Of a stretch of DNA of 64,000 nt, positions 10,831-35,231 are shown one piece after another (the stretch's first letter is position 1; the number at the start of each line of letters is the position of its first letter). Under the pieces are notes generated by a model, which worked only from the letters and a program-made list of their open reading frames with translations, made no database searches and had not been told where the DNA came from. The translations under genes and the position numbers were made by a program. Source of the DNA: Sedimentisphaerales bacterium (lineage in GTDB: Bacteria; Planctomycetota; Phycisphaerae; Sedimentisphaerales; UBA12454); the NCBI GenBank assembly GCA_016930635.1, contig JAFGGI010000047.1, positions 27,538 to 91,537 on the forward strand. The letters are read 5' to 3'.

Positions 10831-11306
10831 TATTTCTTACTGTTGGAACATATCCTCTTGCATTTGAAAGGCTGATAAGGGTTGTTGATGAGATGGTCAG
10901 AGATGGAGTTATAAAAGAGAAAGTTTTTGCTCAGATAGGGCAGTGTACCTACAAACCTAAAAATATGGATTATGTGGATATGTTAAACAAAGAAGTCTTT
11001 GATGACTATTTCAATAAAGCCTCTGCCGTAATCAGTCATGCCGGCATAGGTGCTATAGAAATGGCTCTAAAAACCAGAAAGCCGCTGCTTATTATGCCGC
11101 GATTGCGAAAATATAATGAAGTTGTGAACGATCATCAAGAAGCCACCGCAATAAAATTTGAACAGATGGGACATGTTCTTGCTGCTTATAATGAAAAAGA
11201 ACTCCGTGAAAAATTTAAAGAGCTTGAGTTGTTTGTTCCGCAACCAAGAGAAGATCGGACAAAAGCAGTTGCAGACCGGATTGCAAGGTTCCTGAATGAG
11301 TTATAA
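10827..11306 (+). CDS. Alg13-like catalytic subunit (GT28 C-terminal domain; PssE/Cps14G-like)
   Basis: The N-terminus MIFLTVGTYPLAFERLI... is the typical start of this family. It is translationally coupled to the Alg14-like gene. Confidence 0.7.
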   Translation: MIFLTVGTYPLAFERLIRVVDEMVRDGVIKEKVFAQIGQCTYKPKNMDYVDMLNKEVFDDYFNKASAVISHAGIGAIEMALKTRKPLLIMPRLRKYNEVVNDHQEATAIKFEQMGHVLAAYNEKELREKFKELELFVPQPREDRTKAVADRIARFLNEL

Positions 11307-13275
11307 AAAAGAAAATATTAAAGCTGTTATACTTGCTGGCGAAAATAATATTTATGCACATTCTATGACAAAATCTCTCTCGACTTTACTGTGGCCGGTG
11401 GTTGGGAAATCTTTGCTTGAACGTTTATTGCTCCATTTATCTGATCAAGGTATAAAGCAAGCAGTTATTTGTTGTGACACTAATAGTGAACTTCTGCGTA
11501 AATTAATTGGTAAGTGTGATTATCCAGAGTTGGAATTTATAGAGGAATCCCTGCCTTTAGGTTCGGCGGGATGTATTCGTGCGGCAGCAGCTAACGACAA
11601 GGAAGCTTTATTATTGGTATTTACTGCCGGCATAATATGTCTACCCAATATTGATTTGCTTGTTAAACAGCATCAACAGGGCAAAGCAGATTTGACGGTG
11701 ATGTTTAATCCGAGCGGTCAGGATAACAAAGTAACAGGTGAATTTGCCGGGGTATATGTTTGTCAGCCCAGTGTTCTGGAATATATACCACAGGATGGTT
11801 ATTTTGATATTAAGGAAGGTTTAATCCCTGGTATGCTTAAGGCGGAAAAAAGTGTTCATGCTGCGGTACTTCCGGAACGAACAGGGAACTTCCGCAATTG
11901 GCAGGAATATTTATATGCTGTAGAAGATTATCTTGAAAATAGAGCAAATAAAGATCTGCATATGCAGATCTTCAAAGAAGATAATTCACGAATTATATGG
12001 ACTGGGGACAAAACAAATATACATTCAAATGCTCGACTTTGTGGGCCGGTTGTTATTATGGAGGGAACAACTGTTTCTGAAAACGCAGTTATCTTTGGAC
12101 CAGCCATACTTGGACGCAATGTTACCATTAATGAAGGATGTGTCATTGTCAATAGTATTCTCTGGGATAATGCAAAAGTCGGGAAAAATTGTGAGATCCA
12201 GCGTTGTGTTGTTGATAACAATATAATTGTGGGAGATAATAAGATTGTCGAAGACGAATTTGTTGGCCGAAACTTAGGTCAAATTATAATTAATTCGACA
12301 AGCAAACATTCTACAGTAAAAAGAAGTATGAATAAGTCGCAGTCAGTATTTTCACCGAAGTTTAGTAAAGCAGATAAACTAATACCTGATGCTTTGCGGT
12401 CTAACAGCAAAATGGCCACCACTTGTCTTGCCGGCGGATTGCTTATTATTGCTTTGCTTTGGTCTTATTGGCCCAACTTTACGGATATCTGGAAGATTTG
12501 GCAAAGCAGCGATGAATATTCTTCAGGTATTCTGGTGCCTTTTTTGGCTATATATATTTTATGGTCAAAACGTGATAAAATCAGCCAGGTTGTTATTAAA
12601 CCGTCTGTTTTCGGTTTGTTTGCATTCGCGGGTACTCAGGCGTTCAGATTTTTCGGCTTATACTATATGTATAGTTCGGCAGAAAGACTGTCAATTGTTA
12701 TGAGTATTGCTGCGTTAGTGCTTTTTATCTTTGGTTGGCGTTTCTTCTGGAAGGTATTTACTGTATTACTTTTCTTATTTCTGATGCTTCCATGGCCCAA
12801 CCGTGTTCAAGCTGCCGTAGCACTGCCGTTGCAGAATTGGGCTACTTCATCGGCAGTATTTTGTCTGGAAACGGTAGGTTATGAAGTTGTTCGAGAAGGT
12901 AATACTATCCATATTGGTCAAACAGTTGTTGCGGTAGCTGAAGCCTGTAACGGTCTGAGGATGATTACAGCATTTCTTGTTATCAGTGGTATGGTCGTTT
13001 TGCTGGTCAATCGTAAATGGTGGGAAAAACTAATTATTCTTATTTCGTCTTTGCCGATAGCATTATTTTGCAATACCGTAAGATTGGTTGTTACCTCAAT
13101 TGCGTTCACAATACTGAAAGGAGAGTACTGGGAGAGGATATTCCATGATTTCGGCGGATACGCTATGATGCCGCTGGCGCTTGGTTTGATTGTTATTGAA
13201 CTTTTACTTTTGACGAAACTAACTACTGAACCGACTAAGCAAGAGACTATAATAGTAAAGAAAAAAAAGTCGTGA
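11296..13275 (+). CDS. fusion protein: degenerate sugar-nucleotidyltransferase-like domain plus LbH (hexapeptide) domain plus exosortase (EpsH/Xrt family)
   Basis: aa 1 to about 330 have ...AVILAGENN...WPVVGKSLL... and hexapeptide repeats (...VIMEGTTVSENAVIFGPAILGRNVTINEGCVIVNS...). aa about 373-659 are polytopic and carry exosortase hallmarks: ...DEYSSGILVPFLAIYILW..., Cys in ...EACNGLRMITAF..., Arg in ...FCNTVRLVV..., His in ...FHDFGGYAMMP.... Confidence 0.85.
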   Translation: MSYKKENIKAVILAGENNIYAHSMTKSLSTLLWPVVGKSLLERLLLHLSDQGIKQAVICCDTNSELLRKLIGKCDYPELEFIEESLPLGSAGCIRAAAANDKEALLLVFTAGIICLPNIDLLVKQHQQGKADLTVMFNPSGQDNKVTGEFAGVYVCQPSVLEYIPQDGYFDIKEGLIPGMLKAEKSVHAAVLPERTGNFRNWQEYLYAVEDYLENRANKDLHMQIFKEDNSRIIWTGDKTNIHSNARLCGPVVIMEGTTVSENAVIFGPAILGRNVTINEGCVIVNSILWDNAKVGKNCEIQRCVVDNNIIVGDNKIVEDEFVGRNLGQIIINSTSKHSTVKRSMNKSQSVFSPKFSKADKLIPDALRSNSKMATTCLAGGLLIIALLWSYWPNFTDIWKIWQSSDEYSSGILVPFLAIYILWSKRDKISQVVIKPSVFGLFAFAGTQAFRFFGLYYMYSSAERLSIVMSIAALVLFIFGWRFFWKVFTVLLFLFLMLPWPNRVQAAVALPLQNWATSSAVFCLETVGYEVVREGNTIHIGQTVVAVAEACNGLRMITAFLVISGMVVLLVNRKWWEKLIILISSLPIALFCNTVRLVVTSIAFTILKGEYWERIFHDFGGYAMMPLALGLIVIELLLLTKLTTEPTKQETIIVKKKKS

Positions 13276-20700: not shown

Positions 20701-21899
20701 TTGCTGATGGTACAGCTCCGGCTCTTGCAGGTGCTGCCGATATCCTTGAAAAAGTAACCCAGCGACAACCCCAAATAGATGAAGCATGGGTTATGTTGGG
20801 TAATCTCTTATTGAGGCAGGGCCAATCCTCCAGGGCAATGGATACAGCTTTGCGGGGTCTTGTGAATAATCCCAATAATAAACTACTATTGCTTCTCAAG
20901 GCCAATGTTGAAGCAAGCCAGTCACCTGTCCTGGCGATCCCTACTCTTAAATCTCTAAGAGAGATAGAACCGAATGATTTTGAAGTTACCTTAAACCTGG
21001 CTAATGCGTATATTAACGCTGATGAATACGCAAAGGCTGTGAATTTGCTTAAGGAACAATTGAATAATAACGCTGATGACGAAAGCCGTCAGAGATGTAA
21101 TATCGCTCTGGCAGTAGCGATGTTCAAGAATGGTCAAAAAGATGAAGCGGACAAAATTCTTACCTCTCTTGCTCAATCAAGTCCTGATGACAGCAGAATA
21201 CTGCTTGCCCAGATCAATCTGTTAATGGAAGATGGCCGTTATGGTGATATTACCAATAGTGTGACTGATTGGTTCCGGCAATATCCTCAAAATACTCGTA
21301 TCCTAATCGCTATTGCCGATAGATTAATGACAGCAAAAGATCAAAGCCAAAAAGCATATGAAACCGCTGAGAGTATCCTTCGAATGGTTATGGCCAAGGA
21401 TCCTAATGATGCCGCTGCGGCGCAGATGCTTGCTATTATAATGCAGATTAGTGCTCGCAGTACTGAGGCAATTGAGCTGAACCAGAAACTTCTTGAACTT
21501 AATCCTTCTAATGTGGTTGCTATGAATAATCTTGCCTGGATGTTATGCGAGGAAAAGGGTCAGTATCAGCAGGCCATTGACATTGCCAACGAAGGTCTTG
21601 AAATAGCACCACAATATGTTGATCTCATTGATACTCGAGGAATGGTATATTATCGGCTTGGTCAATATGATAAAGCTATAGAAGATTTTACTGTATGCAT
21701 TAAATTGTATCCAACTGATGCACCAGGGCGGGTTAATTCGTTTTTACATCTGGCAAAAGCTTTTATAGGAGCTGAAAAAAAAGACAAGGCTATTGAATAT
21801 TTGAATAAAACATTAAATATTCAAAATCAGTTTGGCGGATTGACGCCGGAAGATTTAGATGAAGCCAGGAGTTTACTGGAAGCATTATCAAAAGAGTAA
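17733..21899 (+). CDS. very large TPR-repeat protein (PrsT-like PEP-CTERM-system TPR protein), N-terminally membrane anchored
   Basis: RBS GGGAGAAAGGA precedes the ATG. One N-terminal TM (...LAAVLVIGLAIVTITAYGL...) is followed by tetratricopeptide-like repeats along 1388 aa. It sits directly after the priming transferase, as in PEP-CTERM loci. Confidence 0.75.
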   Translation: MARRYFNWKLAAVLVIGLAIVTITAYGLRQWRRSSRSENAIKIGNQAYAKKQWEQAATHFGRYIVVNPSDVSVLLKYADAQLNIRPLKTNNIQHAIGSYRNILRMEKDNLEAALKLTELYLGMRMPGEAELIAQRILEVKPDAEMQRMLALAFIGQRKFSQAVSELNNIIENEPNFISAYETLWQLTKQRPEVSTEVPDYWLDKAVENNPSSAMAYIIRANSHIIDKDMKKALTDLDIAEKQDMSDSKIRLRLATGFINAEALDRAEEHLKILQGIESDNLELWQAWAQLAQQSGSEEKMLQVAEAGLQELSAYPWDFMITAVELFLRGGKPDHADECLSQLRQRDIALASVAFYEGLVAEQKGSVLKAIKCWQRAIELGNKSPRVRLALALGFSRLGDNQSALRELKTLTLENPDFFEGYLTLARLSAKIGDWEQTADVADKAIQLVPTNLGAALLRLQAQVELLSTGAESELVENIKRQLSAMEKATSDAVSVKLVRFRLAIKQGELDYAETLINELRQDKPDNPKITIAQLELLIAMNKTKEAISTFNTLIEQYPQMTESVVTFASLMAQRNDYEKCESIIKDALVRIKEPQAQQRLSLLLVQYYMEWKQQDKAYNFLNTFVKKFPDDISVRRRLITFEIMKKNLEKAQEYVDKIKALEGEDGWQWRYEQARVWYDSDDFENLYTQIVSLLKENLLLDLDDQASRILLAAAYEKSGDIQLSLSMYRQALERSPRDVRIIVPVISALYRAGEYNEADEILNRTVVEKLYHPDLQAIQLRSYLREGQLDSASRIMSELLASDPNDKAVMLSFALLKIRQEKFDQADELLNKLIAMEPDVLPVIVAQIQSKILQNKDEEAVKICDETVAKLNNAEAYILRARTLASLKQTDKAIKDINYIVSAEPNNVNVWVSSSDFYRSIGQHDKAAADIKHAISLAPDNLAIQKRAIMLFLASRNSDMIQQGKTILENALKLAPDDIDLLMHRARLNIADGTAPALAGAADILEKVTQRQPQIDEAWVMLGNLLLRQGQSSRAMDTALRGLVNNPNNKLLLLLKANVEASQSPVLAIPTLKSLREIEPNDFEVTLNLANAYINADEYAKAVNLLKEQLNNNADDESRQRCNIALAVAMFKNGQKDEADKILTSLAQSSPDDSRILLAQINLLMEDGRYGDITNSVTDWFRQYPQNTRILIAIADRLMTAKDQSQKAYETAESILRMVMAKDPNDAAAAQMLAIIMQISARSTEAIELNQKLLELNPSNVVAMNNLAWMLCEEKGQYQQAIDIANEGLEIAPQYVDLIDTRGMVYYRLGQYDKAIEDFTVCIKLYPTDAPGRVNSFLHLAKAFIGAEKKDKAIEYLNKTLNIQNQFGGLTPEDLDEARSLLEALSKE

Positions 21900-22083
21900 T
21901 AGTTTCTGATCAGTCAGTTTATTATCGGATTGTGCTTTAGCCTTATCGTAAACAAATCAATACTTACTTTGTAAGTTATAATATCACACACATACCTTCA
22001 CCGTACACTCTTTAAAAACATTACGGGTTAAACTCTATGTAGATACAAAACTGATTTTGGGTTCTACCCCCGTTATGTTGTCG

Positions 22084-22150
22084 AATCCTCTGTCTGACTT
22101 TTACAGTTGATGTTAAGTTCTACATCGTTAATCAGGCAGAGGATTTTTTT
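22084..22150 (+). terminator. terminator-like hairpin with T-run
   Basis: The arms AATCCTCTGTCTGA (22084-22097) and TCAGGCAGAGGATT (22132-22145) pair over 14 bp with one G-U. A run of 7 T follows (22144-22150). The 34-nt loop is long and the site lies about 185 nt after the TPR stop. Confidence 0.4.
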
Positions 22151-22385
22151 AATTTAGTGGTATTTTTTCTTGCAGAAATACAGAAATTTTAACTTTGTGA
22201 GGAAATAAATAAGATGTAGATACGTAGAGATTAGTTCATATAAAGATTTGAAATATCCTGTAATATGCGCAATCGCTTTTATTAACTCTGGTTATGACTT
22301 ATGAAACTCGCAGGCATTTATATTCAGTCTATAGAGAGTAAAAATATAATATTTGGGTAAAATAGGCGAAAAGTTGGTTTTTGTG

Positions 22386-22413
22386 TTGACAAGGGCGTTT
22401 TTATCGGTACTAT
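22386..22413 (+). promoter_or_regulatory. candidate sigma70-type promoter (TTGACA-16 nt-TACTAT)
   Basis: -35 TTGACA is at 22386-22391 and -10 TACTAT at 22408-22413, in the 678-bp non-coding gap preceding the PEP-CTERM gene array. Confidence 0.3.
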
Positions 22414-22577
22414 TGTTACCTGAATTCGGTATCCAGGGAGGGATGTGCGCTTTCGAAAAGGTAAAGCGAGTGCTTTTCTTAACGTAGGTGTCTTTTGTTC
22501 AGAGATTACATACGCAGATGATGTGTGTAGTTAATGCTGTGTTAATAGTAAGATGATTTTTAGGAAGAAGAATCGGA

Positions 22578-23429
22578 GTGCCAGGAAGATATTATAATTT
22601 GTTCGCTGCGTTGTTAGTAACCTTGCTTCTAACTCAGGCAAGTGCAGCTCCGAGTATTAATAACGAGACTGCTTTGTCTTCGCTTAATGCCTTGCAAAGT
22701 GTGAATACATCTGTTCATTTTGATTCACAATTAACCGGAATTGCTGCCTCGGCACAATCAAGATTGGCAGAAATTGGCGAAGAGTTTACAAAGCCGTCTA
22801 TAATAATTTCCGGTTCAACAGGAACTTCTCAGACCAGTACAAGATCATTGCCTGCTATACCTGCAACATTTTTTATGGTACTAACAGGATTTTTCTGCGT
22901 TTCTTTGGTTAAGGATCGTAAAGCTTGGGTAACGGCACTGACGGGTGTTCTGTATTTTGGTCTTGCCGGGATTAATGCAATTCCTCAACTGCTGCCGCAT
23001 CATAATATACGGGAGGAAATTAAACATTCTTCTTCCTGGGAATCTGCCCATAAACTGGAACTTGAAAATTCATTAAGCAGAAGCCTGGATGCTCAGGGCA
23101 TACAATTTACAGGCCTGCTTCATCGTTTGGCATCAATACCTGATAGTGATGGATTTGTTATAATAGACAGGCTGATAAAACCAGCGGGCATACAAAGTCT
23201 TGCTAAAAAGGCTTTGATGGTTTGGCGCATAGAGTATGTACACACCAGAAAAGCAGATGTATTGTCATTAATATCTGCAATAATACACAATTTATATAAT
23301 CTCAATCTTTCACCTGACTGTCTTGCTGTAAAAACAGGGCAGCAGGTTTATTTCTCATCTGAATTTTCGATTAGTTACAGACCCCACGGCCCGCCTAAAA
23401 ATAAATTGGGAATCTTTTTTGTGAGTTAA
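22578..23429 (+). CDS. hypothetical secreted/membrane protein with an internal PEP-CTERM-like segment
   Basis: GTG start. The signal-peptide-like N-terminus (...LLVTLLLTQASAAP...) is followed by a Ser/Thr-rich stretch. Then ...LPAIPATFFMVLTGFFCVSLVKDRK... appears at about aa 91-118, and about 165 more residues follow. Confidence 0.4.
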   Translation: MPGRYYNLFAALLVTLLLTQASAAPSINNETALSSLNALQSVNTSVHFDSQLTGIAASAQSRLAEIGEEFTKPSIIISGSTGTSQTSTRSLPAIPATFFMVLTGFFCVSLVKDRKAWVTALTGVLYFGLAGINAIPQLLPHHNIREEIKHSSSWESAHKLELENSLSRSLDAQGIQFTGLLHRLASIPDSDGFVIIDRLIKPAGIQSLAKKALMVWRIEYVHTRKADVLSLISAIIHNLYNLNLSPDCLAVKTGQQVYFSSEFSISYRPHGPPKNKLGIFFVS

Positions 23430-23506
23430 AACAGGCTCACACATATTTTTAATATAATTTTTAAACTTAAAGTTGAATGCAACAAATGAAAAAAAGGAGT
23501 TTTAGT

Positions 23507-24196
23507 ATGAAAAGATTAATATTATTGACGTTGATGTTCGGCCTTCTTGCAGTTCCGGCCTTTGCTACACCAACGGTTAAATTAACCGGTATTGGTAAAG
23601 GCGGCGTCTACAATGGCTACTTTGCTGGTGAGATGAACTGGCGAGTCAATGACGATGACGGCGGAAACCTCGACGGATATGATACTGGAGATACATTTGT
23701 GAGCTTCTGTCTTGAGCTGCATGAACCTGTATCTATCGGCGGCATTTATGATGCCGTGATAAATACTAGTGCGGTTGAAGGCGGAATCCCGGGCGGCTCT
23801 GATGCTATTAGTCAGGGTACAGCCTGGTTGTACAACGAATATCTGGATAATTATATCGGCGTTAGCAATACACTGGCTAAAGATTATCAGATGGCTGTTT
23901 GGGCTCTTGAAAACGAGATTCCTGTCGGTGATCTGACAGCAGGGGCACAAAGTCTGATAAGCAATATCCCAACAGTATTTACTGCTAAGCAGTTGGTCCA
24001 GATAGGTCTTATCAAAGTTCTCAATTTGTATGTCCAGGGAACATATCCTACGGATAACACCTGTAACTACAGACAAGACATGCTTATCCGTGTCAGCACT
24101 GGTGGTGTTATAGTTCCTGCTCCCGGTTCTATTCTGCTCAGCAGTATCGGAATTGGCATTGTAGGCTGGCTGCGAAGACGAAGGAATATGATGTAA
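23507..24196 (+). CDS. PEP-CTERM ('PAP' variant) sorting-domain surface protein with thioester-domain-like Cys/Gln motifs
   Basis: AAGGAG lies 7 nt before the ATG at 23507; the listed 23477 start adds 10 aa before the signal peptide. The signal peptide is MKRLILLTLMFGLLAVPAFA. Motifs: ...SFCLEL... and ...YQMAVWALE.... The tail is ...VPAPGSILLSSIGIGIVGWLRRRR. Confidence 0.85.
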   Translation: MKRLILLTLMFGLLAVPAFATPTVKLTGIGKGGVYNGYFAGEMNWRVNDDDGGNLDGYDTGDTFVSFCLELHEPVSIGGIYDAVINTSAVEGGIPGGSDAISQGTAWLYNEYLDNYIGVSNTLAKDYQMAVWALENEIPVGDLTAGAQSLISNIPTVFTAKQLVQIGLIKVLNLYVQGTYPTDNTCNYRQDMLIRVSTGGVIVPAPGSILLSSIGIGIVGWLRRRRNMM

Positions 24197-24302
24197 ATGA
24201 AAATTAAACTTAATGGCTTTATGAAAAAGCCAAAGAGAATTACCAATGTGTAATTTTCTCTTGCAACCACGGATTGGCAGAAAAGAAAGGTAAAACATAA
24301 AA

Positions 24303-24998
24303 ATGAAAAAGTTTAGCAGAAATATAATTAAATACTTCGCTGTTGTAATTTTTGTTGCGGCGATGTTTATTTCTTCTGCAGAAGCTGTCCCTACCTATTA
24401 TTTTGGCGGCGTCACTAACAATAATGTTACCAATGTTAGTGCCGGACAGAGTCAGTTAAGTCTTGAAGTGACTCATCCGGACGGCGTTGATAATCAGACG
24501 CTGTTTACTTTCAAAAATACTGGGCCGCAGGGCTTCTCGATTACGGACGTTTATTTCTATGATGGTACTCTTCTGGGTATCTCACAGATTGACAACTCAG
24601 ATCCGGGCGTCTTGTTCGAATCTTCTGCAGTTCCGCAGGAATTGCCGGGTGGAGAGTCTCTTGGTCTTTCGACTGTAAGCTTCTCTCTCGACTCTGGCGC
24701 ACCACCGTTCGATAATGGTGTGGCACCTGGTGAGGAACTGGGTATCCTGTTCGATCTCATAAATGGTGCTGTTTATTCAGATACTCTTGACGCACTTAAC
24801 GGCAGCGGTTTCGTTGATGGTAATCTTATTGTTGCTGTTCAGGTTCAGGGATTTGATGACGGCGGCGTTGAATCATTTGTGACTATTGGTACAGAACCTC
24901 TTCCTGCGACTATTATTATTCCGGCCCCGGCAGCACTTTTGCTTGGCAGTATTGGTGTTACTATGGTTGGCTGGATGAAAAGACGGAACGCAGTTTAA
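24303..24998 (+). CDS. PEP-CTERM ('PAP' variant) sorting-domain protein, unassigned domain, paralog A
   Basis: Signal peptide plus the tail ...IIPAPAALLLGSIGVTMVGWMKRR. It is colinear and highly similar to the next gene. Confidence 0.85.
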   Translation: MKKFSRNIIKYFAVVIFVAAMFISSAEAVPTYYFGGVTNNNVTNVSAGQSQLSLEVTHPDGVDNQTLFTFKNTGPQGFSITDVYFYDGTLLGISQIDNSDPGVLFESSAVPQELPGGESLGLSTVSFSLDSGAPPFDNGVAPGEELGILFDLINGAVYSDTLDALNGSGFVDGNLIVAVQVQGFDDGGVESFVTIGTEPLPATIIIPAPAALLLGSIGVTMVGWMKRRNAV

Positions 24999-25018
24999 TA
25001 TAATAGGAGGTAATTAAA

Positions 25019-25723
25019 ATGGAAAGGTTTAGCGGAAATACAATTAAATACTTTGCTTTTGTTGCTTTGACTATAGCAGTATTTGTTGTTTCTGCAGATG
25101 CTGTACCGACATATTATTTTGCCGGTGTCACTAGCAATAACCTTGTTAATGTCACCGCTGGACAGAGTCAGTTATCTGTTGAAGTGACTCATCCGGACGG
25201 TGTTGACAATCAAACGTTATTTACTTTTAAAAATGTTGGGCCACAGGGATGTGCAATTACAGATATATATCTCTATGATGGTACTCTTTTGGGTATCTCA
25301 CAGATTGATAATTCAGATCCAGGTGTCTCATTTTCACCTTTTGCAAAACCAGATAAACTACCCGGCGGAGAGTATCTTGGGCTTCCTGGCGTAAGTTTTT
25401 CTCTGGATTCTGATAATCCGGCATTTCACAATGGCGTCGGGCCCGATGAAGAACTAGGTATTCTGTTTGATCTCGTAAATGGTGCCGTTTATTCGAACAC
25501 GCTTGATGCACTCAATGGTGTCGGATTTCTTGGCAGTAATCTTGTGATCGGCATACATGTTCAGGGATTTGATGACGGCGGCAGTGAATCTTTTGTAACC
25601 GCTGCTGGCGGACCAACACCAACAAGTATTATTATTCCTGCTCCGTCAGCAATTTTACTGGCTGGTATTGGTGTTAGTTTAGTTGGTTGGATAAAAGGTG
25701 GAAAACGATTTAGTAGGAGATAA
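25019..25723 (+). CDS. PEP-CTERM ('PAP' variant) sorting-domain protein, unassigned domain, paralog B
   Basis: An AGGAGG RBS precedes it. The tail is ...IIPAPSAILLAGIGVSLVGWIKGGKR. It shares long identical peptide runs with 24303..24998 (e.g. VTHPDGVDNQTLFTFKN, YDGTLLGISQIDNSDPGV). Confidence 0.85.
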   Translation: MERFSGNTIKYFAFVALTIAVFVVSADAVPTYYFAGVTSNNLVNVTAGQSQLSVEVTHPDGVDNQTLFTFKNVGPQGCAITDIYLYDGTLLGISQIDNSDPGVSFSPFAKPDKLPGGEYLGLPGVSFSLDSDNPAFHNGVGPDEELGILFDLVNGAVYSNTLDALNGVGFLGSNLVIGIHVQGFDDGGSESFVTAAGGPTPTSIIIPAPSAILLAGIGVSLVGWIKGGKRFSRR

Positions 25724-25726
25724 TAA

Positions 25727-26365
25727 ATGAAAGGATTGATTACAATTTGTTTAGTAGTAACTTTGGTGATTAGTTCGTATGCTTTTGCCAATGGAACTGT
25801 GAAAATGGCAATAGGTCGCTATGGCACTCCTAACTATGGCGTAGATGGTGAATTTATAATTACGGTGCTCAGCGGCCTGCCGGAGCTTCCGACTCAATTT
25901 GGTTCTTTTTGTCTGGAGCTGAATGAGTCTATTAGTGCTGGTACTACTTACAATGCTGTTATTAACACTGAAGCTATTAAAGGCGGAGAGGCAACATCTG
26001 ATCCCCTCTCGCCGAAAACCGCCTGGCTTTACAATCAGTACCTTACCGGTGCTATTACGTTTAACGTAAATTATGATGCTACCCAGTTCCAATATGCCAT
26101 CTGGGCGCTCGAAGATGAAATTGCACCTGGGTATGATGCGGGCAATGGAATTTATTGGAATTCTGTTGCAACAGGTTACTATGACGCTGCTATGGCTTCT
26201 AATTGGCAGAGTATAGGTAATATCCGTGTCCTGAATATGGGAACTGCGGACGACAACTATCAATATCAGGATGTGTTAGCACCTATTCCGGCTCCTGGTG
26301 CGGTTCTGCTCGGCAGTATTGGTGTCAGCATCGTTAGTTGGCTAAAAAGGAAAAGAGTATTTTAA
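25727..26365 (+). CDS. PEP-CTERM ('PAP' variant) sorting-domain surface protein with thioester-domain-like Cys/Gln motifs, paralog A
   Basis: Signal peptide. Motifs: ...GSFCLELNE... (Cys62, TGT at 25910-25912) and ...TQFQYAIWALEDE... (Gln122). The tail is ...IPAPGAVLLGSIGVSIVSWLKRKR. Confidence 0.85.
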   Translation: MKGLITICLVVTLVISSYAFANGTVKMAIGRYGTPNYGVDGEFIITVLSGLPELPTQFGSFCLELNESISAGTTYNAVINTEAIKGGEATSDPLSPKTAWLYNQYLTGAITFNVNYDATQFQYAIWALEDEIAPGYDAGNGIYWNSVATGYYDAAMASNWQSIGNIRVLNMGTADDNYQYQDVLAPIPAPGAVLLGSIGVSIVSWLKRKRVF

Positions 26366-26378
26366 AGGAAATAAAAGA

Positions 26379-27017
26379 ATGAAAAAATTAATTACAATTT
26401 GTTTTGTAATAACTTTGGTGGTCAGTTCATATGCGTTCGGCAATGGAACGATAAAGCTTAGCCTTGGCAGGTACGGTACTCCCAATCATGGGTATGACGG
26501 TGAGTTGCTGGTTACAGTTATGAGCGGTCTGGGTGTTCTTCCAACGCACTTTGGTTCTTTTTGTCTGGAACGAGAAGAAGGTATTGAGCCTCATGTTGTT
26601 TATAATGCTGTTATCAATACCGAAGCTATCAAGGGTGGAGAGTCTGTCTCTGATCCTCTTTCACCCCAAACCGCCTGGCTTTACAATCAGTACCTGACTG
26701 GTGCAATTACATTCGGCGATGATTATGATGCTACTCAGTTTCAGTATGCTGTATGGGCACTCGAGGATGAGATTACACCATATGCGGTAGGTGATGGGAT
26801 TTACTGGAATTCTGTTGCAACGGGTTACTATAACGCTGCTATAGCTTCTAATTGGCAGACTATACGTAATATCTGTGTGCTGAACGTAGGTGATGATCCG
26901 GATTATGTTTATCAGGATGTTTTAGCCCCGATTATACCTGCTCCTGGCGCAGTTTTACTTGGCAGTATCGGTATTGCTTTTGTTGGCTGGTTGAAAAGAC
27001 AAAGAACGCTCGGATAG
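26379..27017 (+). CDS. PEP-CTERM ('PAP' variant) sorting-domain surface protein with thioester-domain-like Cys/Gln motifs, paralog B
   Basis: Colinear with 25727..26365. Motifs: ...GSFCLEREE... and ...TQFQYAVWALEDE.... The tail is ...IPAPGAVLLGSIGIAFVGWLKRQR. Confidence 0.85.
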   Translation: MKKLITICFVITLVVSSYAFGNGTIKLSLGRYGTPNHGYDGELLVTVMSGLGVLPTHFGSFCLEREEGIEPHVVYNAVINTEAIKGGESVSDPLSPQTAWLYNQYLTGAITFGDDYDATQFQYAVWALEDEITPYAVGDGIYWNSVATGYYNAAIASNWQTIRNICVLNVGDDPDYVYQDVLAPIIPAPGAVLLGSIGIAFVGWLKRQRTLG

Positions 27018-27082
27018 AGCAGAACAAATGGATTTTAATTGGATAATTTGAATGGAATGTAATAAGGAGTTAATAGAACAAA

Positions 27083-27936
27083 TGAAAAATAAAGTAATAT
27101 TTACTTTGGTGTTCTTCATTTTTGTAACGGCTAATATTGCTGCTGCCAGTCAGAGCTATATGCTTTTTGATGATTGGGGCGGCAGCTGGTCTGATGCGGA
27201 AAAAACACCGGGTAATTCGCAGGATAACCTGATGTGTTGGGCGGCATCGGCGTCGAATGTACTTGACTGGTCTGGCTGGGGACATGTTGCAGGTCTTAGT
27301 AGTGCAGATGAAATATTTAGTTACTACCAGAATCACTGGACAGACCAGGGCGGCTCAGCATATTATGCTTGGGAATGGTGGTTTACCGGTAATAACAGCA
27401 CCCAGGGCGGTTATTATGCGATGACCGGCTGGTCTCAGGTAGATGTACCCGGCGGAGGATTCTATCCTTCAGAAGGTTTACATGACTACTTTATGTATGC
27501 TTCCGCAGCTACTTCGAACGTAATGCAGGCGATAGACCAGTTTCAACATGCTGGATATGGAACCTCTTTAGGATTATTCTCATCTGCTATAGCTCATGCC
27601 GTGACTGCGTGGGGATTCGACTATAATCCTGACAATCCGACTGAATATTATGGTATTTGGATTACTGACTCTGATGACGGTAAGAATGACTTGACTCCCG
27701 AAGACGAATTATGTTACTACGCCTTGAACTTCAGTAATAATAAGTGGTATCTGGAGGATTATTACGGATACTACGATGTTTATATTGATCATGTTCTCGG
27801 ATTAGGGCGTATGCCAGGATGGGACGATATTCCTAATGAGCCGGTACGTGAGATTTTTATCCCTGCACCCAGTGCATTGGTACTTGGCAGTATAGGTGTA
27901 GGATTTGTCGGTTGGTTAAAAAGAAAAGCACTGTAA
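27083..27936 (+). CDS. IdeS/Mac-like (peptidase C66-like) cysteine endopeptidase with PEP-CTERM ('PAP' variant) tail
   Basis: ATG at 27083 follows AAGGAG (27065-27070) and begins the signal peptide MKNKVIFTLVFFIF...; an alternative start is at 27052. Motifs: ...QDNLMCWAASASNVLDWSGWG..., ...IAHAVTAWGFDY..., ...YGIWITDSDDG.... The tail is ...IPAPSALVLGSIGVGFVGWLKRK. Confidence 0.75.
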
Positions 27937-28050
27937 AAAATGGCAGACAATTAAAGGCGGAATTATTAATTCTGCCCTTGGGATGTTTTGAAGTAGAGTG
28001 GAAAGTAGGAAGATGTATATTTTGCTTCTGTACTTGAAGTAGGTTGGGTC

Positions 28051-28140
28051 AGATTTTATGTTTCGGCCCGTAGTCCTGTTCTGCTAAGCAGAACAGGTGT
28101 TGCTTTTGTCGGCTGGTTACGGACAAAAAGAACTTTATAG
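28051..28140 (+). pseudogene. orphan remnant of a PEP-CTERM tail (no protein body)
   Basis: The frame ending at TAG 28138-28140 reads ...ARSPVLLSRTGVAFVGWLRTKRTL*. This is colinear with the ...PAPGAVLLGSIGIAFVGWLKRQRTLG* end of 26379..27017. There is no upstream signal peptide or start. Confidence 0.5.
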
Positions 28141-28183
28141 AATAACAGGATGGCCGCTACTAAGTTGCGGATGTGGGTATTAT

Positions 28184-29008
28184 TTAAAAAGCTATCATTT
28201 CCGGCAGAGGTTGGCATTGCCAGTTTCCGATACCGTCCCAATATACAGAGATATAATCGACAATAGGGATATTTTGCCTTTTTTTGTCTTTGCAGATATT
28301 CATTGCCATATCATGAAGATGCCGCATGCAGCTTAAGCCCCCGATTTGGCAGGTTTTGACACCGATTTTGGCAATTTCACATTCTGTTTGAAAATTCATT
28401 TTATTGCTTATCAATATTTCAGCAAGTCTTTCAGCATCAGGCAGCAATGTTTTCTGCCAGAGCTGCCGGTTTGATTCTTCATTTGACAGTACTTCTGCTA
28501 ACAATCGTTCTCGATTTTCCTGCATTTCCTGTCGTGTTTTTTTAGCTTCAGCTAATCTGGCAGTACGATGAGCTCGACTTGCAGGTAATAACATTTCAAG
28601 AAAACCTGCTATAGGATCGATAATTATCCATGATAAAAACGTTGCCCCTAATGTACCCAGAGCAATGCCGAGAAGAAATTCGTGTACTACCTGTGTGCCT
28701 GCCATCCCTATAAAACCTGCTAACGCTCCCAAGAATGGACTTATATCATACAGGAATAAATAGTAGTATGCACTGGTCAGCGGATGTTCTATCGACAACT
28801 GTGTCCTGCTGATTTCTCTGAAGATAATAAACAAATACAAGCTTGTCAGCAGTAATAGTATTAGAATGGAATGACCGGAGAAGGAAAAAATAACCCACCA
28901 TTCGATACCGGCTTGCCGCAATGCTAAAGTTAAAATATAGCCGATACATGCAATTAGCCAGATTGCACCGGAGAAATGAATTAATTTTAGCATTCGACGT
29001 AAAAACAT
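28184..29008 (-). CDS. hypothetical polytopic membrane protein with cytoplasmic C-terminal domain
   Basis: A 274-aa ORF with about 5 hydrophobic helices in the first 150 aa, then a charged coiled-coil-like segment and a Cys-containing C-terminus. No family recognised. Confidence 0.5.
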   Translation of the reverse strand: MFLRRMLKLIHFSGAIWLIACIGYILTLALRQAGIEWWVIFSFSGHSILILLLLTSLYLFIIFREISRTQLSIEHPLTSAYYYLFLYDISPFLGALAGFIGMAGTQVVHEFLLGIALGTLGATFLSWIIIDPIAGFLEMLLPASRAHRTARLAEAKKTRQEMQENRERLLAEVLSNEESNRQLWQKTLLPDAERLAEILISNKMNFQTECEIAKIGVKTCQIGGLSCMRHLHDMAMNICKDKKRQNIPIVDYISVYWDGIGNWQCQPLPEMIAF

Positions 29009-29062
29009 TATCGCAAAACCCCTTTAATGTCAGACAAACCTTTTTTAAATGGCTAACATAAA

Positions 29063-29812
29063 TTAAGGACCAGACTGTGTTGATGCAGGGCCTTCCAGAG
29101 TTCTTTGTATGACATTGATAGTTGAGAAGGTACTGTTGATCGGTGTTGTAATCTCCTGTACGGTTTTCCCTATGGAGGCCAATATAGTTGGCGGCACGTA
29201 GATTATGTCGCCTTGTTGTATTAGAACATCTCTGCTGGTATCGCCGGTGGTCATCATTTTTTTGAAGTCCAGTTCAAATACTTTAGGTTTTATATTCACA
29301 TCATTTGATGGTCTTATCACCCGGATGCGTTCGTTCCAGGCTAGGATAGTTGGATTAGCCGAGGCAATAGCTGTAAATGCCGGAACTCTGCCGGTACAAA
29401 GCTTTGGACCCGGATGTTCTACTTCGCCGAGAACATAATAGTAATTACTTTGGTACGTTGATATCTGAATGTCAATTGGATTATCCCCAGATAGTGCGTA
29501 AAGTTCTATAACTTTCATTCGCAGATCGTTTGCTAACTGTTCGGGAGTTTTACCTGCTGCGTATACGCTTCCCAGACTCTCGAAGGTTACATAGCCGTCA
29601 GGTCTGATTTGCTGTTTTTGGAGATTAATTTCAGGGACTTTTAAGCAGTGTATCTCAATCTCATCCGGGGGCATCAGGAAATACTTTTCGGTTGTTACAA
29701 CAGTATCGTTTGGTTTTAAAAATGCGTCGATATCATCTATTTTGGATGACGAGGAACATCCCGCAAACAGGACAAAAGACAAAATAATCACATTTAAAAT
29801 TATTGAACGCAT
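29063..29812 (-). CDS. polysaccharide export lipoprotein (Wza/EpsE-like, Poly_export + SLBB)
   Basis: Lipobox ...VLFAGCSSSS. The motif ...IRPDGYVTFESLGSVYAAGKTPEQLANDL... is typical of the polysaccharide export family. A strong AAGGAGG RBS precedes it. Confidence 0.85.
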   Translation of the reverse strand: MRSIILNVIILSFVLFAGCSSSSKIDDIDAFLKPNDTVVTTEKYFLMPPDEIEIHCLKVPEINLQKQQIRPDGYVTFESLGSVYAAGKTPEQLANDLRMKVIELYALSGDNPIDIQISTYQSNYYYVLGEVEHPGPKLCTGRVPAFTAIASANPTILAWNERIRVIRPSNDVNIKPKVFELDFKKMMTTGDTSRDVLIQQGDIIYVPPTILASIGKTVQEITTPINSTFSTINVIQRTLEGPASTQSGP

Positions 29813-29917
29813 TATACTTACCTCCTTAATATTCTACAGACTGTACTGATTGTACGGACTGTATCGATTATATGACGTTTATCACTAACCAATAATTAAA
29901 CCCAAAGCAAGCGGGTT

Positions 29918-30475: not shown

Positions 30476-31105
30476 TTACAGCCTGATATTTAATTCATAT
30501 TTGCATGAAGGACATAGTATCTTCATGAAATCGCCGGCGACAGCTTCGGCTTTTGTTTCCTGTGTTTGTTTTGCCTGCTGAGTAAGTTCAGAGATTTTTT
30601 TTTGGCTGGTTAAATTCTCTGATTGTGCAATAACCAATGATGGATTTGTATAAGCAAGTGGGCCAAGACGCTCATATATCCAGGCCAGGTGCTTTTTTAC
30701 GCCGACGATAGCACCGCATTTTTCACATATCTGCAATTCATGTTCGTGTATTTCTTTTGTGGTTTCCCTGTCAAGTGTTGCCAGATCCCACTTATCTGAT
30801 AACTTGATACCTTTTTGAGTGGTACAGTTTTCCTGGCAGTTGCCGCAGAAGATGCAGGAGTCATACCGCTGGATTATTTTTCGTACAGGCGGGTTTGCCT
30901 CGAGATCATCTATCATCATAAGAGACTGTGTGGGACAGACATTTACACAAGCGCCACAACCGATACATTCTTTTTCGTCGAATTCAGGCTTGCCGCGATA
31001 CCTTTCAGGAACCTGGCACGGTTTAGCAGGGAAACGCGTTGTAAAACGCGGCGAAATAACAGCGACCACAGCTTCTTTAAGTTCTCTTAGTTTTGGCCAA
31101 CGCAT
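30476..31105 (-). CDS. 2x[4Fe-4S] ferredoxin-type hydrogenase subunit (NuoI/MbhN/EchF-like) with C-terminal extension
   Basis: Motifs: ...CIGCGACVNVCP... and ...CIFCGNCQENC.... An extra roughly 80-aa tail carries CEKCG and CPSCK pairs. Confidence 0.75.
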   Translation of the reverse strand: MRWPKLRELKEAVVAVISPRFTTRFPAKPCQVPERYRGKPEFDEKECIGCGACVNVCPTQSLMMIDDLEANPPVRKIIQRYDSCIFCGNCQENCTTQKGIKLSDKWDLATLDRETTKEIHEHELQICEKCGAIVGVKKHLAWIYERLGPLAYTNPSLVIAQSENLTSQKKISELTQQAKQTQETKAEAVAGDFMKILCPSCKYELNIRL

Positions 31106-31116
31106 TTTAGCTCCGT

Positions 31117-31440
31117 TTATTTTTCTTCTGCATATCTGTCAATAATACTTTTGTCGGTAAGCGATATTCCGGCTGAATGCGCACCTCTGGATATAGCGTG
31201 GGCGGCGGTTGGTGAGGTTATCAGGATAAAAACAGCACAGATAATTGCTTTGCCGGCTATTGCACCTGTTCCTATTATCAAGGCGGTGCCGCCAAGGATC
31301 ATTATAGTTCCTAAAGTTACACATTTTGTCGAGGCCTGCAGGCGGTTGTAAACATCCGGAAAACGTACAAGCCCTATACAGCCGGAGATATCAAAAAAGA
31401 TTCCAACCGAGACCAGCATATAGCCTAAAAAATCAATCAT
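31117..31440 (-). CDS. Mrp/Mnh-type cation:proton antiporter subunit G (MbhC-like)
   Basis: ...GCIGLVRFPDVYNRLQASTKCVTLG... matches the MnhG signature. About 107 aa with 3 TM helices. Confidence 0.8.
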   Translation of the reverse strand: MIDFLGYMLVSVGIFFDISGCIGLVRFPDVYNRLQASTKCVTLGTIMILGGTALIIGTGAIAGKAIICAVFILITSPTAAHAISRGAHSAGISLTDKSIIDRYAEEK

Positions 31441-31690
31441 CGAAATTCCTTCCTTCCAGAAACTTTGCCAGTGCCAGTGATGCGATAAAACTCAAAAGTG
31501 CCCAGGCAAGTGCGACATTGAGATAAAAATCCTGTTTTGTTACGATAGTCATTATTGCACAAAAACCTACTATAACAATACCCATAATATCAATGGATAC
31601 TATCCTGTCGGCGGCGCTTGGTCCTCTGCCGATGCGGTATAAGCACAGCAGCGAGCATGTTATCAAGCTTATATAAAATACAGCTATCAT
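31433..31690 (-). CDS. Mrp/Mnh-type antiporter subunit F (MbhB-like)
   Basis: 85 aa with ...RIGRGPSAADRIVSIDIMG.... It overlaps the downstream gene by 8 nt. Confidence 0.75.
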   Translation of the reverse strand: MIAVFYISLITCSLLCLYRIGRGPSAADRIVSIDIMGIVIVGFCAIMTIVTKQDFYLNVALAWALLSFIASLALAKFLEGRNFDD

Positions 31691-31702
31691 AAAAATTCCT
31701 GT

Positions 31703-32203
31703 TTACTCAAAAATCTTTGCCAGAAAATATTCAAATTTCTTTGCGATATATTCGGTTGCTTCTTCGGTGTCGGTACTTTTTATGTTAATCCAGTGTATAT
31801 ACATAGTGCCGTCATCTTTCAAATCAACAGTTAGCGTGCCCGGCGTCAATGTTATAGAATTTGCAAGTGCGACGCGGGCAGCATCTGTCTTAAGAGACGT
31901 TTTTATTTTGACAATACCGGGCTTTATTGGCAGCTTCGGGTGTAGAGCGCGGTAAACAACATCGAAATTAGCAATGAGTATATAATAGAAAAATACCGGG
32001 ATATAAATAATCGCCCAGAAAACTCTTACAGGCGAGAAGAGGAATTTATACTCAGTGGGCATAACTTCATGGAACATAACCGAAACAATTATTGCAGCGC
32101 CAACACCTGCCAGGATAACCTGCAGGCTGTCGGCGGTGCCGAACGGCCAGGTCAAAACCAGCCATACAACCAGGGCTACTATAAAATAAACTACTCTTCG
32201 CAT
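31703..32203 (-). CDS. Mrp/Mnh-type antiporter subunit E (MbhA-like)
   Basis: 166 aa with N-terminal TM helices and the conserved ...NSITLTPGTLTVD... block. Confidence 0.75.
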   Translation of the reverse strand: MRRVVYFIVALVVWLVLTWPFGTADSLQVILAGVGAAIIVSVMFHEVMPTEYKFLFSPVRVFWAIIYIPVFFYYILIANFDVVYRALHPKLPIKPGIVKIKTSLKTDAARVALANSITLTPGTLTVDLKDDGTMYIHWINIKSTDTEEATEYIAKKFEYFLAKIFE

Positions 32204-32215
32204 AATTAAAACCTG

Positions 32216-33748
32216 TTATTGACCAGTTAAAATCTGAGCACTTAAAACCTTTCCTGCATAAGCAAAGCCGTCTGAAAGAGCATTAACGGCGTTATCGAGA
32301 ACGACAACACGGAAAGGTTCGTAAATAACGAGTGCTCCCATAAACACACAAAGAATCGCAAGCAAAATCATCGCACAAGCCATAAGACCGCGATGTTCAG
32401 CAGTGGATTTTAAATTTTCAGGCAATTCACCAAGAAATACGTATCTTTGAACTTTCAAAAACGATATAAGTGTTACAATACTTACCAGAACGGTAACAGC
32501 TGCAAGGCCGTAAAGGCCGGCTTGTACCGCGGCAATTACTAATATCAACTTGCTCCAGAAACCATTAAAAGGCGGTACCCCTGCAATAGCAGCAGAAGCA
32601 ATTGTGCATGTCGAGCGGGTAACAGGCAGCCTTTCAGCAAGACCGCCAAGCTCTTTAAGCTGCCTTGTGCCGGTTGACATCTCGACAGAGCCGCTTGTTA
32701 AGAACAACAGCGATTTGAAGACCGCATGATTCATCAGGTGGAACAGCCCGCCGAGCAATGCAAGAGATGCCCAGGCAGGATTGCCGCCATTAGAAAGAAT
32801 AAGTGCCGCCATTCCAATACCGAGTATGACATAACCCATTTGGCTGATACTGTGATAAGCCAGAAGACGTTTGAAATCCCACTGGCCGACAGCGAGAAAG
32901 ACGCCTATGACCATACTTAAAACACCCAGGGCAATTAACACCCAGCTTATCTGCACCGATATTCCTAATACGTTGAAGATAACTCTCGAGAGAGAATAAA
33001 TCCCTAAAGCCTTGATCAGGACGCCTGAAAGCATTGCTGAAATTGGTGCCGGTGCCGAAGGATGTGCATCAGGCAGCCAGGCATGGAAGGGTACAAGAGC
33101 GGCCTTTAAGCCAAAACCTGTTGTAAATAATGCAAGGGCAAAGGCAAGACCGGTATTGATACCATTTTCGGCAACATATCTTGAAATAACAGCCATGTTC
33201 AATGAACCGGTATTACCGTAAACAACTCCTACGCCGAACAGCACAAACATTGATGCTACGGTTCCCAGTGTCATATATTTGAAAGCCGCCTCAAGTTCTT
33301 CATGCTCACAGCCGAACCCGACAAGGGCGTAAGAGGCAATAGAGGCAATCTCGAGAAATACAAACAGATTGAAGATGTCGCCGGACAGTACCACGCCGTT
33401 CATTCCGGTAACCATCAGCAAAAACAGGCTCAGATACTTGTTCTTGGAAGTATACTGCTCCATGTAACGATTACTGAAAAGCATAGCTGTAAAGCTGACA
33501 GTACTTATAGTTGCCAGCATTAATGCACTTAGGCCGTCAAGGACCAGATTTATGCCAAGAGGTATTGTCCAACGACCGACGATATAAACATCAAATCTGC
33601 CAAAGGATAATATTGACATAACAAGCAGGACAGCTATTACCACGGTTGCAGCAAGAGAAGCAAATCCCTTGAATTTTTTACCACACAACGGCAGCAGAAA
33701 GGCCGAAGCTAATGGCAGAGCAATAAATAAAGGCAGAGGAATACTCAT
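32216..33748 (-). CDS. Mrp antiporter subunit D / NuoM-N-like proton-translocating subunit (MbhH-like)
   Basis: A 510-aa polytopic protein with ...HAWLPDAHPSAPAPISAMLSGVLIK... and ...LLAYHSISQMGY..., typical of the NuoL/M/N-MrpA/D family. Confidence 0.85.
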   Translation of the reverse strand: MSIPLPLFIALPLASAFLLPLCGKKFKGFASLAATVVIAVLLVMSILSFGRFDVYIVGRWTIPLGINLVLDGLSALMLATISTVSFTAMLFSNRYMEQYTSKNKYLSLFLLMVTGMNGVVLSGDIFNLFVFLEIASIASYALVGFGCEHEELEAAFKYMTLGTVASMFVLFGVGVVYGNTGSLNMAVISRYVAENGINTGLAFALALFTTGFGLKAALVPFHAWLPDAHPSAPAPISAMLSGVLIKALGIYSLSRVIFNVLGISVQISWVLIALGVLSMVIGVFLAVGQWDFKRLLAYHSISQMGYVILGIGMAALILSNGGNPAWASLALLGGLFHLMNHAVFKSLLFLTSGSVEMSTGTRQLKELGGLAERLPVTRSTCTIASAAIAGVPPFNGFWSKLILVIAAVQAGLYGLAAVTVLVSIVTLISFLKVQRYVFLGELPENLKSTAEHRGLMACAMILLAILCVFMGALVIYEPFRVVVLDNAVNALSDGFAYAGKVLSAQILTGQ

Positions 33749-34584: not shown

Positions 34585-34669
34585 CCCGTTAGACCTCCTT
34601 CCCTACGACAAACGTCATTTTTATTTGAAGGGGTATCAGTACGAATTAATTTAAAAGTTCTAACGGGAT

Positions 34670-35224: not shown

Positions 35225-35231
35225 AACAGTC

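Follow-up and report, generated by a model that had tools for sequence, protein, structure and literature searches.

Why should a relative of a streptococcal antibody-cleaving protease be encoded by a sediment bacterium, and carry a tail of the kind by which exosortases sort surface proteins? The question is raised by a gene in a 64,000-nucleotide stretch of contig JAFGGI010000047.1, from a Sedimentisphaerales bacterium of the phylum Planctomycetota. The whole stretch is referred to here as the window; all positions are those of the window, and genes are labelled by their window coordinates. The gene (27082..27936, + strand, including the stop codon) specifies a 284-residue precursor, which a preliminary description had likened to the IgG-specific endopeptidase IdeS. 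The reading favoured here, at a probability of about 0.78, is that the product is a small secreted cysteine protease, distantly related to IdeS and equipped with a PEP-CTERM surface-sorting tail, in a sediment Planctomycete.

The comparison concerns IdeS/Mac-1 of Streptococcus pyogenes, IdeC, IdeZ and IdeSsuis (MEROPS family C66, clan CA, PF09028), with which the window protein shares a papain-like fold and the same Cys-His-Asp order. Searched as a single sequence with phmmer against 177,635 Protein Data Bank (PDB) sequences, it retrieved IdeS (2au1) at E=0.0079 and IdeC (9hb1, 9hb2) at 0.011, and the alignment to IdeS spans both the Cys block and the His/Asp block. The signal becomes much stronger when relatives are included. 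A profile from an alignment of 29 sequences, taken from among 289 homologues in a large protein collection, matched IdeS 2au1 at E=4.1e-9, Mac-1, IdeC and IdeS 8a47 at about 3e-7, and T-Mac of Treponema denticola at 4e-5; 22 of the 29 aligned members themselves match the Pfam Mac-1 model at E<=0.01 (best 1.5e-7). An AlphaFold (AF2) model built on this family alignment reached a mean predicted local distance difference test score (pLDDT) of 87.8 and a predicted template-modelling score (pTM) of 0.80. When the model was compared with the PDB by Foldseek, the 12 best matches were all C66 enzymes (E 1.8e-9 to 8.9e-8, probability 1.00), among them T-Mac 9arc as the best at 1.8e-9, IdeC 9hb1, Mac-1 2avw, and IdeS 8a47 and 1y08; staphopain came next, at 7e-3. 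These profile and fold statistics rule out a chance resemblance to IdeS. Membership of another clan CA family was rejected too: in the Foldseek comparison, staphopain, calpain and SpeB all fell behind by six or more orders of magnitude.

The active site can be followed residue by residue. The three blocks on which the likeness had originally been based are all present in the translation, namely DNLMCWAASASNVLDWS with Cys52, IAHAVTAWGFDY with His172, and GIWITDSDDG with Asp196 and Asp198, and the IdeS blocks set beside them (DDLLCGAATAGNMLHW, INHVINLWGADF and AIYVTDSDSN) turned out to be exactly their partners in the HMMER alignments. In the hidden Markov model (HMM) alignments, Lys41, Cys52, His172, Asp196 and Asp198 stand opposite positions 37, 47, 215, 237 and 239 of the 2au1 chain, which a chain offset of 47 converts into Lys84, Cys94, His262, Asp284 and Asp286. 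None of the five varies among the 29 aligned sequences. In IdeC, Cys94, His262 and Asp284 form the catalytic triad, while the oxyanion hole consists of Lys84 and the backbone amide of Cys94, with Asp286 salt-bridged to Lys84 (PMC12418751); for T-Mac, the triad positions were confirmed by superposition (PMC11833123). The corresponding + strand codons are 27202..27204 for Lys41, the equivalent of the oxyanion-hole Lys84; 27235..27237 (TGT) for Cys52, the predicted nucleophile and equivalent of Cys94; 27595..27597 for His172, equivalent to His262; and 27667..27675 for Asp196-Ser197-Asp198, which align with Asp284 of the triad and Asp286 of the salt bridge. In the AF2 model, Cys52 is the first residue of helix 52-64, His172 lies in strand 171-182 and Asp196 falls just past strand 185-195, with pLDDT values of 89-97 at these places; as modelled, this is the papain-fold arrangement. 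The motif at the nucleophile reads CWAA, as in papain, where IdeS has CGAA. The oxyanion lysine, the second aspartate and secretion without a prosegment are further IdeS-like traits. Spacings differ, with 29 residues from the signal-peptide cut to the Cys (64 in IdeS) and 120 from Cys to His (168 in IdeS).

Several observations weigh against this reading. The lone protein stays below the Pfam cutoffs both for Mac-1 (PF09028: E=0.14, 11.5 bits, cutoff 20.3) and for the PEP-CTERM tail (PF07589: E=0.086, 13.4 bits, cutoff 20.7), and no NCBIfam model matches the protease even at E<=10. Identity to the solved C66 enzymes is only 14-17%, and the TM-scores are about 0.52, a value normalised over the full precursor including some 50 non-domain residues of signal peptide and tail. 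The superposition of catalytic atoms is one of sequence alignment and secondary-structure position, not of distances, and a Cys/His/Asp triad on a papain fold is also found in other types of enzyme. A weak point of a different kind is that no contig lay on 22000-29900 in three metatranscriptomes from the same study, although these runs consist of contigs only and do not show that the region is silent.

Since the Pfam threshold is missed while the family profile matches IdeS, the protein is best placed on an outlying branch of C66 rather than among its core members. By its predicted fold and aligned active site it belongs to the C66 lineage, and it is probably an active, surface-sorted C66-like endopeptidase. 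The preliminary description had named two profile and structure checks. The first is answered at the level of the family, which connects to Mac-1 and IdeS, and not by the single protein, which falls short of the Mac-1 cutoff; in the second, the fold match is to C66, with the triad placed by alignment and secondary structure in lieu of distances. Neither of the two outcomes that would have spoken against the assignment was found: the searches did not point to a different clan, and the catalytic positions do not fall away from the IdeS triad. The assignment to an IdeS/Mac-1 fold with Cys, His and an Asp pair is thus upheld by profile, fold and active-site evidence together.

The gene itself requires one correction. 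The open reading frame (ORF) 27052..27936 (+) holds two in-frame ATG codons, at 27052 and 27082. The latter is the likely start, because a Shine-Dalgarno-like AAGGAG (27064..27069, +) lies 12 nucleotides before it, homologues begin at the same place, and MKNK suits the n-region of a signal peptide; no Shine-Dalgarno-like site precedes the other ATG, at 27052, and homologues align from the Met at 27082. The extent first proposed, 27083-27936, had captured the right gene with a start one base off, and translation from 27083 runs into 17 stops. That the predicted ORF is a real gene follows from its 289 homologues and from the 2,134 clusters at 50% identity recovered by profile search. An exact-sequence look-up of the window protease found no record. 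Downstream, a terminator-like hairpin at 28075..28097 (+), with a 10-bp stem including six G-C pairs and a T-rich tail and recognised by consensus match only, ends the + strand array, and the next genes are convergent. Because of the hairpin and the convergent genes, the protease gene is the last of that array, as had been stated.

The precursor is simply laid out. Residues 1-22 (27082..27147, +) form a predicted Sec-type signal peptide, MKNKVIFTLVFFIFVTANIAAA followed by SQ, in which the three expected regions can be seen: MKNK, a hydrophobic core, and AAA directly before the cut, with S after it. The model has a helix at residues 2-17. The papain-fold peptidase domain of the IdeS/Mac-1 (C66) lineage, identified by profile, AF2 and Foldseek, comprises residues 23-245 (27148..27816, +), some 225 amino acids without a prosegment. 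A low-confidence linker (residues 246-258; 27817..27855, +), with pLDDT below 50 at 256-259 and unconserved in the alignment, leads to the sorting tail, the last 26 residues FIPAPSALVLGSIGVGFVGWLKRKAL (27856..27933, +). By inspection, this tail has the layout of a Pro-x-Pro motif, here PAP, then a helix and a basic end. Both the signal peptide and the PAP-type PEP-CTERM tail that had been claimed are therefore found in the translation. The claim that the protease is delivered by an exosortase signal holds for the presence of the tail and not for its role: export is the task of the Sec signal peptide, whereas the tail serves sorting and anchoring.

The identification of the tail draws on more than the window protein. 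PF07589 is matched by 17 of the 29 family members at E<=0.01, and the five genes immediately upstream (23477-27017), whose bodies belong to two unrelated families, have tails with 50-70% identity to that of the window protein. There are thus six consecutive + strand genes with near-identical tails, of which the protease gene is the last. Signal peptide, Pro-x-Pro motif, transmembrane helix and basic cluster are the features of exosortase cargo in general (PF07589; TIGR02602), and the grouping of same-tail genes side by side, near exopolysaccharide genes and an exosortase, is likewise typical of PEP-CTERM systems. Unusual features are the PAP motif in place of PEP, the score below the Pfam threshold, and an exosortase of no named subtype with a nucleotidyltransferase module fused to it. 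The shared tail, ...PAPGA(V/I)LLG(S/G)IGV..., also resembles the lower hinge of human IgG1, PAPELLG/GPSV, which IdeS cuts at the point marked by the slash. The published cleavage preference is for Leu at P2, with only Gly or Ala at P1 and P1' (PMC12418751). This resemblance is probably fortuitous, as Leu and Gly abound in PEP-CTERM helices, which would sit in the membrane.

The exosortase lies at 11296..13275 (+), 14 kilobases (kb) upstream, and is presumed to be the processing enzyme for these tails. Its exosortase part (residues ~380-652) scores 148 bits against TIGR02602 (cutoff 105.55); it passes this general model only, and no cutoff for a named Xrt subtype is reached. The N-terminal fusion partner, of about 335 residues, is a GlmU-like combination of a sugar-1-phosphate nucleotidyltransferase and a left-handed beta-helix. 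Exopolysaccharide genes follow on the + strand: a tyrosine autokinase/chain-length determinant (13630-15945), a priming sugar transferase (15979-17697) and a PrsT-like tetratricopeptide repeat (TPR) protein (17733-21899); glycosyltransferases are also among the genes around the exosortase. Beyond the protease, on the - strand, a 274-residue multi-pass membrane protein without a family match (28184-29008) and a polysaccharide export protein (29063-29812) make up a convergent pair that is conserved in syntenic loci, being 50-56% identical to its counterparts in L088 and L089. In every syntenic locus the membrane protein adjoins the exporter; its counterparts in L088 and L089 are 52-54% identical to it, and L087 and L003 have one as well. 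Read from its genes, the locus is a complete exosortase and exopolysaccharide locus with an array of cargo.

Two further observations concern the stretch between the TPR gene and the cargo. A protein of about 270-283 residues (22578-23429; here p283) heads the cargo array in all syntenic loci (L002 4695-5525; L088 5293-6105; L089 4551-5333). It contains an internal PEP-CTERM-like segment (LPA[IV]PA, a hydrophobic helix, DR[KR]) and then some 170 conserved residues (GLLHxLAGIP ... FSPAFIF ... RGPP); no library match was obtained for it, and a search of PDB sequences gave chance-level hits only (GDSL lipase, 0.32). Before it, the 680 nucleotides of 21900-22577 have no ORF of 45 or more residues, and the sole one listed at a minimum of 40 has 44. 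A LuxR/GerE-type regulator of about 135 residues occupies the equivalent position in the syntenic loci L002, L088 and L089; a decayed copy of it in the window was considered and rejected, as tblastn finds no remnant.

From these elements the following mode of action is proposed. Judging by its signal peptide, the precursor would cross the inner membrane by the Sec route and lose its first 22 residues. By analogy with other PEP-CTERM/exosortase systems, the tail, with its PAP motif, transmembrane helix and Lys/Arg end, would then serve as the recognition and cleavage site of the exosortase, whose gene lies 14 kb upstream, and an enzyme of about 235 residues would be left on the cell envelope or in the exopolysaccharide layer. 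Lacking a prosegment, this enzyme would use Cys52 and His172 as its catalytic pair, oriented by Asp196; its oxyanion hole would consist of Lys41 and the backbone amide of Cys52, with Asp198 holding Lys41, as in IdeS. It would thus be a surface cysteine endopeptidase that acts on extracellular proteins, and its substrates are most likely proteins of the matrix or the surroundings. Immunoglobulin is not expected among them, because the organism is a free-living sediment anaerobe.

The family to which the protein belongs is large. Among the 289 homologues, the closest are 60-64% identical over their full length, and many carry precomputed PF09028 matches. A HMMER pass over 1.84 billion representatives gave 2,134 clusters (at 50% identity) at E<=1e-3, of which 1,383 remained at 1e-10 and 522 at 1e-30, and 234 loci with a C66-like domain emerged when one genome per GTDB species was scanned. 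The taxonomy is that of the best 80 of these 234 loci. They come mostly from Planctomycetota (Planctomycetaceae, Pirellulales, Thermoguttaceae, Phycisphaerae, Brocadiia), and frequently also from Desulfobacterota (Desulfobacterales, Syntrophales, Smithella), including the cultured Desulfobacter curvatus DSM 3379 (L083), whose homologue has 36% identity. C66-like homologues were also seen on contigs binned as archaeal (L056, L075 and L077; Thermoplasmata, Hodarchaeota, Bathyarchaeia), in proteins of 700-2,300 residues; these could reflect true transfer or mis-binning.

Two architectures can be distinguished. The small one, of 260-320 residues, consists of signal peptide, domain and PEP-CTERM tail, as in the window. 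The large one extends to 7,391 residues and has the domain set within it, in some proteins twice or three times (P0234, P0236). Giant Planctomycetota proteins of 4,700-7,400 residues have the domain in their middle part (L068, L030, L046, L057, L059, L081, L045 and L074, each with its match at ~8001; P0245, P0288, P0328). Six of the nine large relatives scanned have a proprotein-convertase P-domain after the C66-like domain, and in mid-sized relatives a P-domain and an SdrD_B domain follow it. Others combine it with dockerin, PKD, Ig-like, cadherin-like, Calx-beta or F5/8-type-C domains. As such companions are those of secreted degradative enzymes, they support a hydrolytic, extracellular role. 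The largest array seen is in L006, from a Planctomycetaceae metagenome-assembled genome (MAG; CAZBLD010000001.1), where the C66-like gene lies within 14 consecutive + strand genes for proteins of 210-290 residues with PEP-CTERM-type tails. In the source databases, members are called 'hypothetical', 'PEP-CTERM sorting domain-containing' or 'dockerin type I domain-containing', and never peptidase. Literature searches turned up nothing on C66 enzymes that are environmental or bear a PEP-CTERM tail, and no paper on a PEP-CTERM cargo with a recognisable enzyme (protease) fold.

The five upstream genes with the same tail deserve attention in their own right, as they had been called putative adhesins and possible substrates. 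Three of them specify related proteins: that directly upstream of the protease (26379..27017, +; 212 residues), a paralogue 73% identical to it (25727..26365, +), and a third that is 37-41% identical to the other two (23477..24196, +) and scores 17.5 bits against PF07589. An AF2 model of the first (pLDDT 85.2) gave 14 best Foldseek matches that are all thioester domains (TEDs), including those of Clostridium perfringens (5a0g, 4.9e-5), Streptococcus pyogenes Cpa (4c0z, 3e-4) and Bacillus anthracis TIE (6fwv, 1.7e-3); the next, unrelated match has E=0.58. Walden et al. described the TED motifs as [YFL]C-hydrophobic-hydrophilic, TQxx-hydrophobic-W in a helix, and hydrophobic-Q-hydrophilic-hydrophobic-hydrophobic in a strand (PMC4450167). 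The motifs FC62LE, Q122xxxW126xxE and Q179D are conserved in the family of three, and in 26379-27017 FC62LE, FQ122YAVW126 (helix 115-128) and YQ179DVL (strand 179-184) match that set, in predicted strand, helix and strand contexts that correspond to it. As modelled, the three neighbours are TED-like and adhesin-like and may hold a Cys-Gln thioester. This placement came from the fold search: no Pfam or NCBIfam model matches them, PF08341 and TQXA included, NCBIfam gives nothing for any of the five neighbours even at E<=10, and the family profile reached only E=0.11 among PDB sequences, with a streptococcal pilin. With 212-239 residues the proteins lack a stalk, and only about 35 full-length relatives turned up among 5.8 billion proteins; an exact-sequence look-up of the closest, P0124, returned no record. 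The other two genes, 24303..24998 and 25019..25723 (both +), 71% identical to each other, share the tail and are here called the B family. For the protein of 24303-24998 no Pfam, NCBIfam or PDB match exceeded chance (HIV reverse transcriptase at E ~0.04-0.1). The label of putative adhesin is thus apt for three of the five neighbours, and the B-family pair could not be so placed.

TEDs have been reported exclusively from Gram-positive bacteria, in LPXTG proteins (PMC4450167), and the literature searches found no paper that treats TEDs and PEP-CTERM together. If the model is right, covalent 'harpoon' adhesins may not be limited to Gram-positive bacteria.

This setting suggests that the protease might be dedicated to its co-encoded PEP-CTERM cargo, above all the TED-like proteins, which it would trim, mature or detach. 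Precedent for release of this kind exists in the LapG/LapA system of Pseudomonas, where a papain-superfamily cysteine protease is encoded near a surface adhesin. LapG is a periplasmic transglutaminase-like (C93) protease under cyclic di-GMP control and is unrelated to C66; it serves here as an analogy, a model for release. In five of six informative loci, which hold the closest relatives (47-64% identity), a TED-like gene adjoins that of the protease: the window, L002, L003, L005 and L016. In the sixth, L087, a B-family gene takes its place. The common sorting tail would bring all six products to the same surface, and a covalent adhesin would plausibly require a protease for its detachment. 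However, the five positive loci were found by way of the protease, which biases the count. Loci L088 and L089 are syntenic, with TPR, regulator, p283, B-family, TED, membrane-protein and exporter genes, but have no C66 gene; with a TED gene and no protease, they rule out an obligatory pairing of the two. The other 79 loci of the scan (among L001, L004 and L006-L084) lack a full TED-like neighbour, L037 reaching only 1.6e-4. Another PEP-CTERM gene is present within 8 kb in 16 of 47 small-architecture loci and absent in 31, the Desulfobacter homologue stands alone among housekeeping genes, and the domain also occurs inside giant multidomain proteins. The proposed processing of neighbours is weakened by these observations, and as a dedicated function it is unlikely. 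With L088 and L089 devoid of the protease, PEP-CTERM neighbours few and the Desulfobacter homologue alone, the protease is one interchangeable cargo gene, at that end of the conserved array which varies, and not a maturation factor that the neighbours require.

A more specific version is that the TED proteins bind their target covalently and that the co-anchored C66-like enzyme, which bears the same PAPxxLLG(G/S) tail, cuts them or their tethers, so that the two would form an attach-and-release module. In one variant, the enzyme would recognise the tail itself, the tail being similar to the IgG1 hinge. This proposal is still less probable and should be taken as speculative. If true, Gram-positive covalent adhesion would have a counterpart in Gram-negative bacteria, one that is based on an exosortase and brings its own enzyme for release.

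There is a slim chance that the protein is not a peptidase at all, the papain fold serving a transglutaminase-like cross-linker, an acyltransferase, or an amidase that acts on polysaccharide or the cell envelope. Non-peptidases do occur among clan CA-like folds with a Cys/His/Asp triad (PMC10318531), and the gene lies in a polysaccharide and surface-protein locus. Yet all significant sequence and structure matches are to C66 endopeptidases, the C66-specific Lys and second Asp are invariant, and relatives carry the P-domain that is typical of secreted proteases.

An immune-evasion factor that degrades immunoglobulin or complement, like IdeS or T-Mac, is scarcely credible: all characterised relatives do cut IgG, IgM or complement proteins, but the DNA comes from a sediment metagenome, the genome is that of a Sedimentisphaerales anaerobe with membrane-bound hydrogenase genes, the family is spread across free-living Planctomycetota and Desulfobacterota, and the domain is some 80 residues shorter than mature IdeS, with its Cys-to-His spacing of 120 against 168.

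A surface-sorted, C66-like endopeptidase acting on extracellular proteins is therefore retained as the preferred reading, and its relation to the known enzymes can be stated more closely. To our knowledge, every characterised C66 enzyme (IdeS, IdeC, IdeZ, IdeSsuis, T-Mac) is from a host-associated pathogen and cuts antibodies or complement. The window protein differs from all of them in size, anchor, host lifestyle and genomic setting, and necessarily in substrate. Unlike IdeS, it is PEP-CTERM-anchored, belongs to a diderm, free-living sediment host, and is encoded in an exosortase/polysaccharide locus. The best structural match is the C-terminal domain of T. denticola TDE0362, or T-Mac (PDB 9arc, 9mdk), a C66-type enzyme that is likewise from a diderm. 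In T-Mac, Asn takes the third place of the triad, and a prosegment and two N-terminal Ig-like domains are present; the enzyme cleaves complement proteins and acts as a virulence factor. The window protein has Asp at this place, a sorting tail and no additional domains. T-Mac does not cut IgG (PMC11833123); therefore, the C66 family is not confined to antibody cleavage.

The window enzyme has the same predicted catalytic machinery in a compact form, in free-living sediment bacteria, and the enzymes of pathogens may represent a specialised branch within a far wider environmental group of surface proteases. It would also assign an enzymatic function, albeit predicted, to a PEP-CTERM cargo protein. 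IdeS is a licensed drug and laboratory reagent owing to its single-site specificity, and the family could be regarded as a pool of candidate narrow-specificity endopeptidases for biotechnology. Environmental relatives of a papain-fold protease are in themselves unsurprising; what deserves follow-up is the size of the unannotated family, the enzymatic cargo, and the TED-like association outside Gram-positive bacteria.

Elsewhere in the window, on the - strand, a single ORF of 806 residues (43329-45749) has a histidine-kinase-like (PnpS/PhoR-like) region at residues 11-230, in its N-terminal part, and a CoA-disulfide reductase at 252-700. A cluster at 30476-38307 (-) specifies a membrane-bound, Mrp-antiporter-linked [NiFe] hydrogenase or a complex-I-like module; its products include a ferredoxin, a pair of antiporter-like subunits and the large subunit. 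The large subunit (37096-38307) is 90% identical to a protein from a Sedimentisphaerales MAG, and the named top matches obtained are all from Sedimentisphaerales or Planctomycetota.

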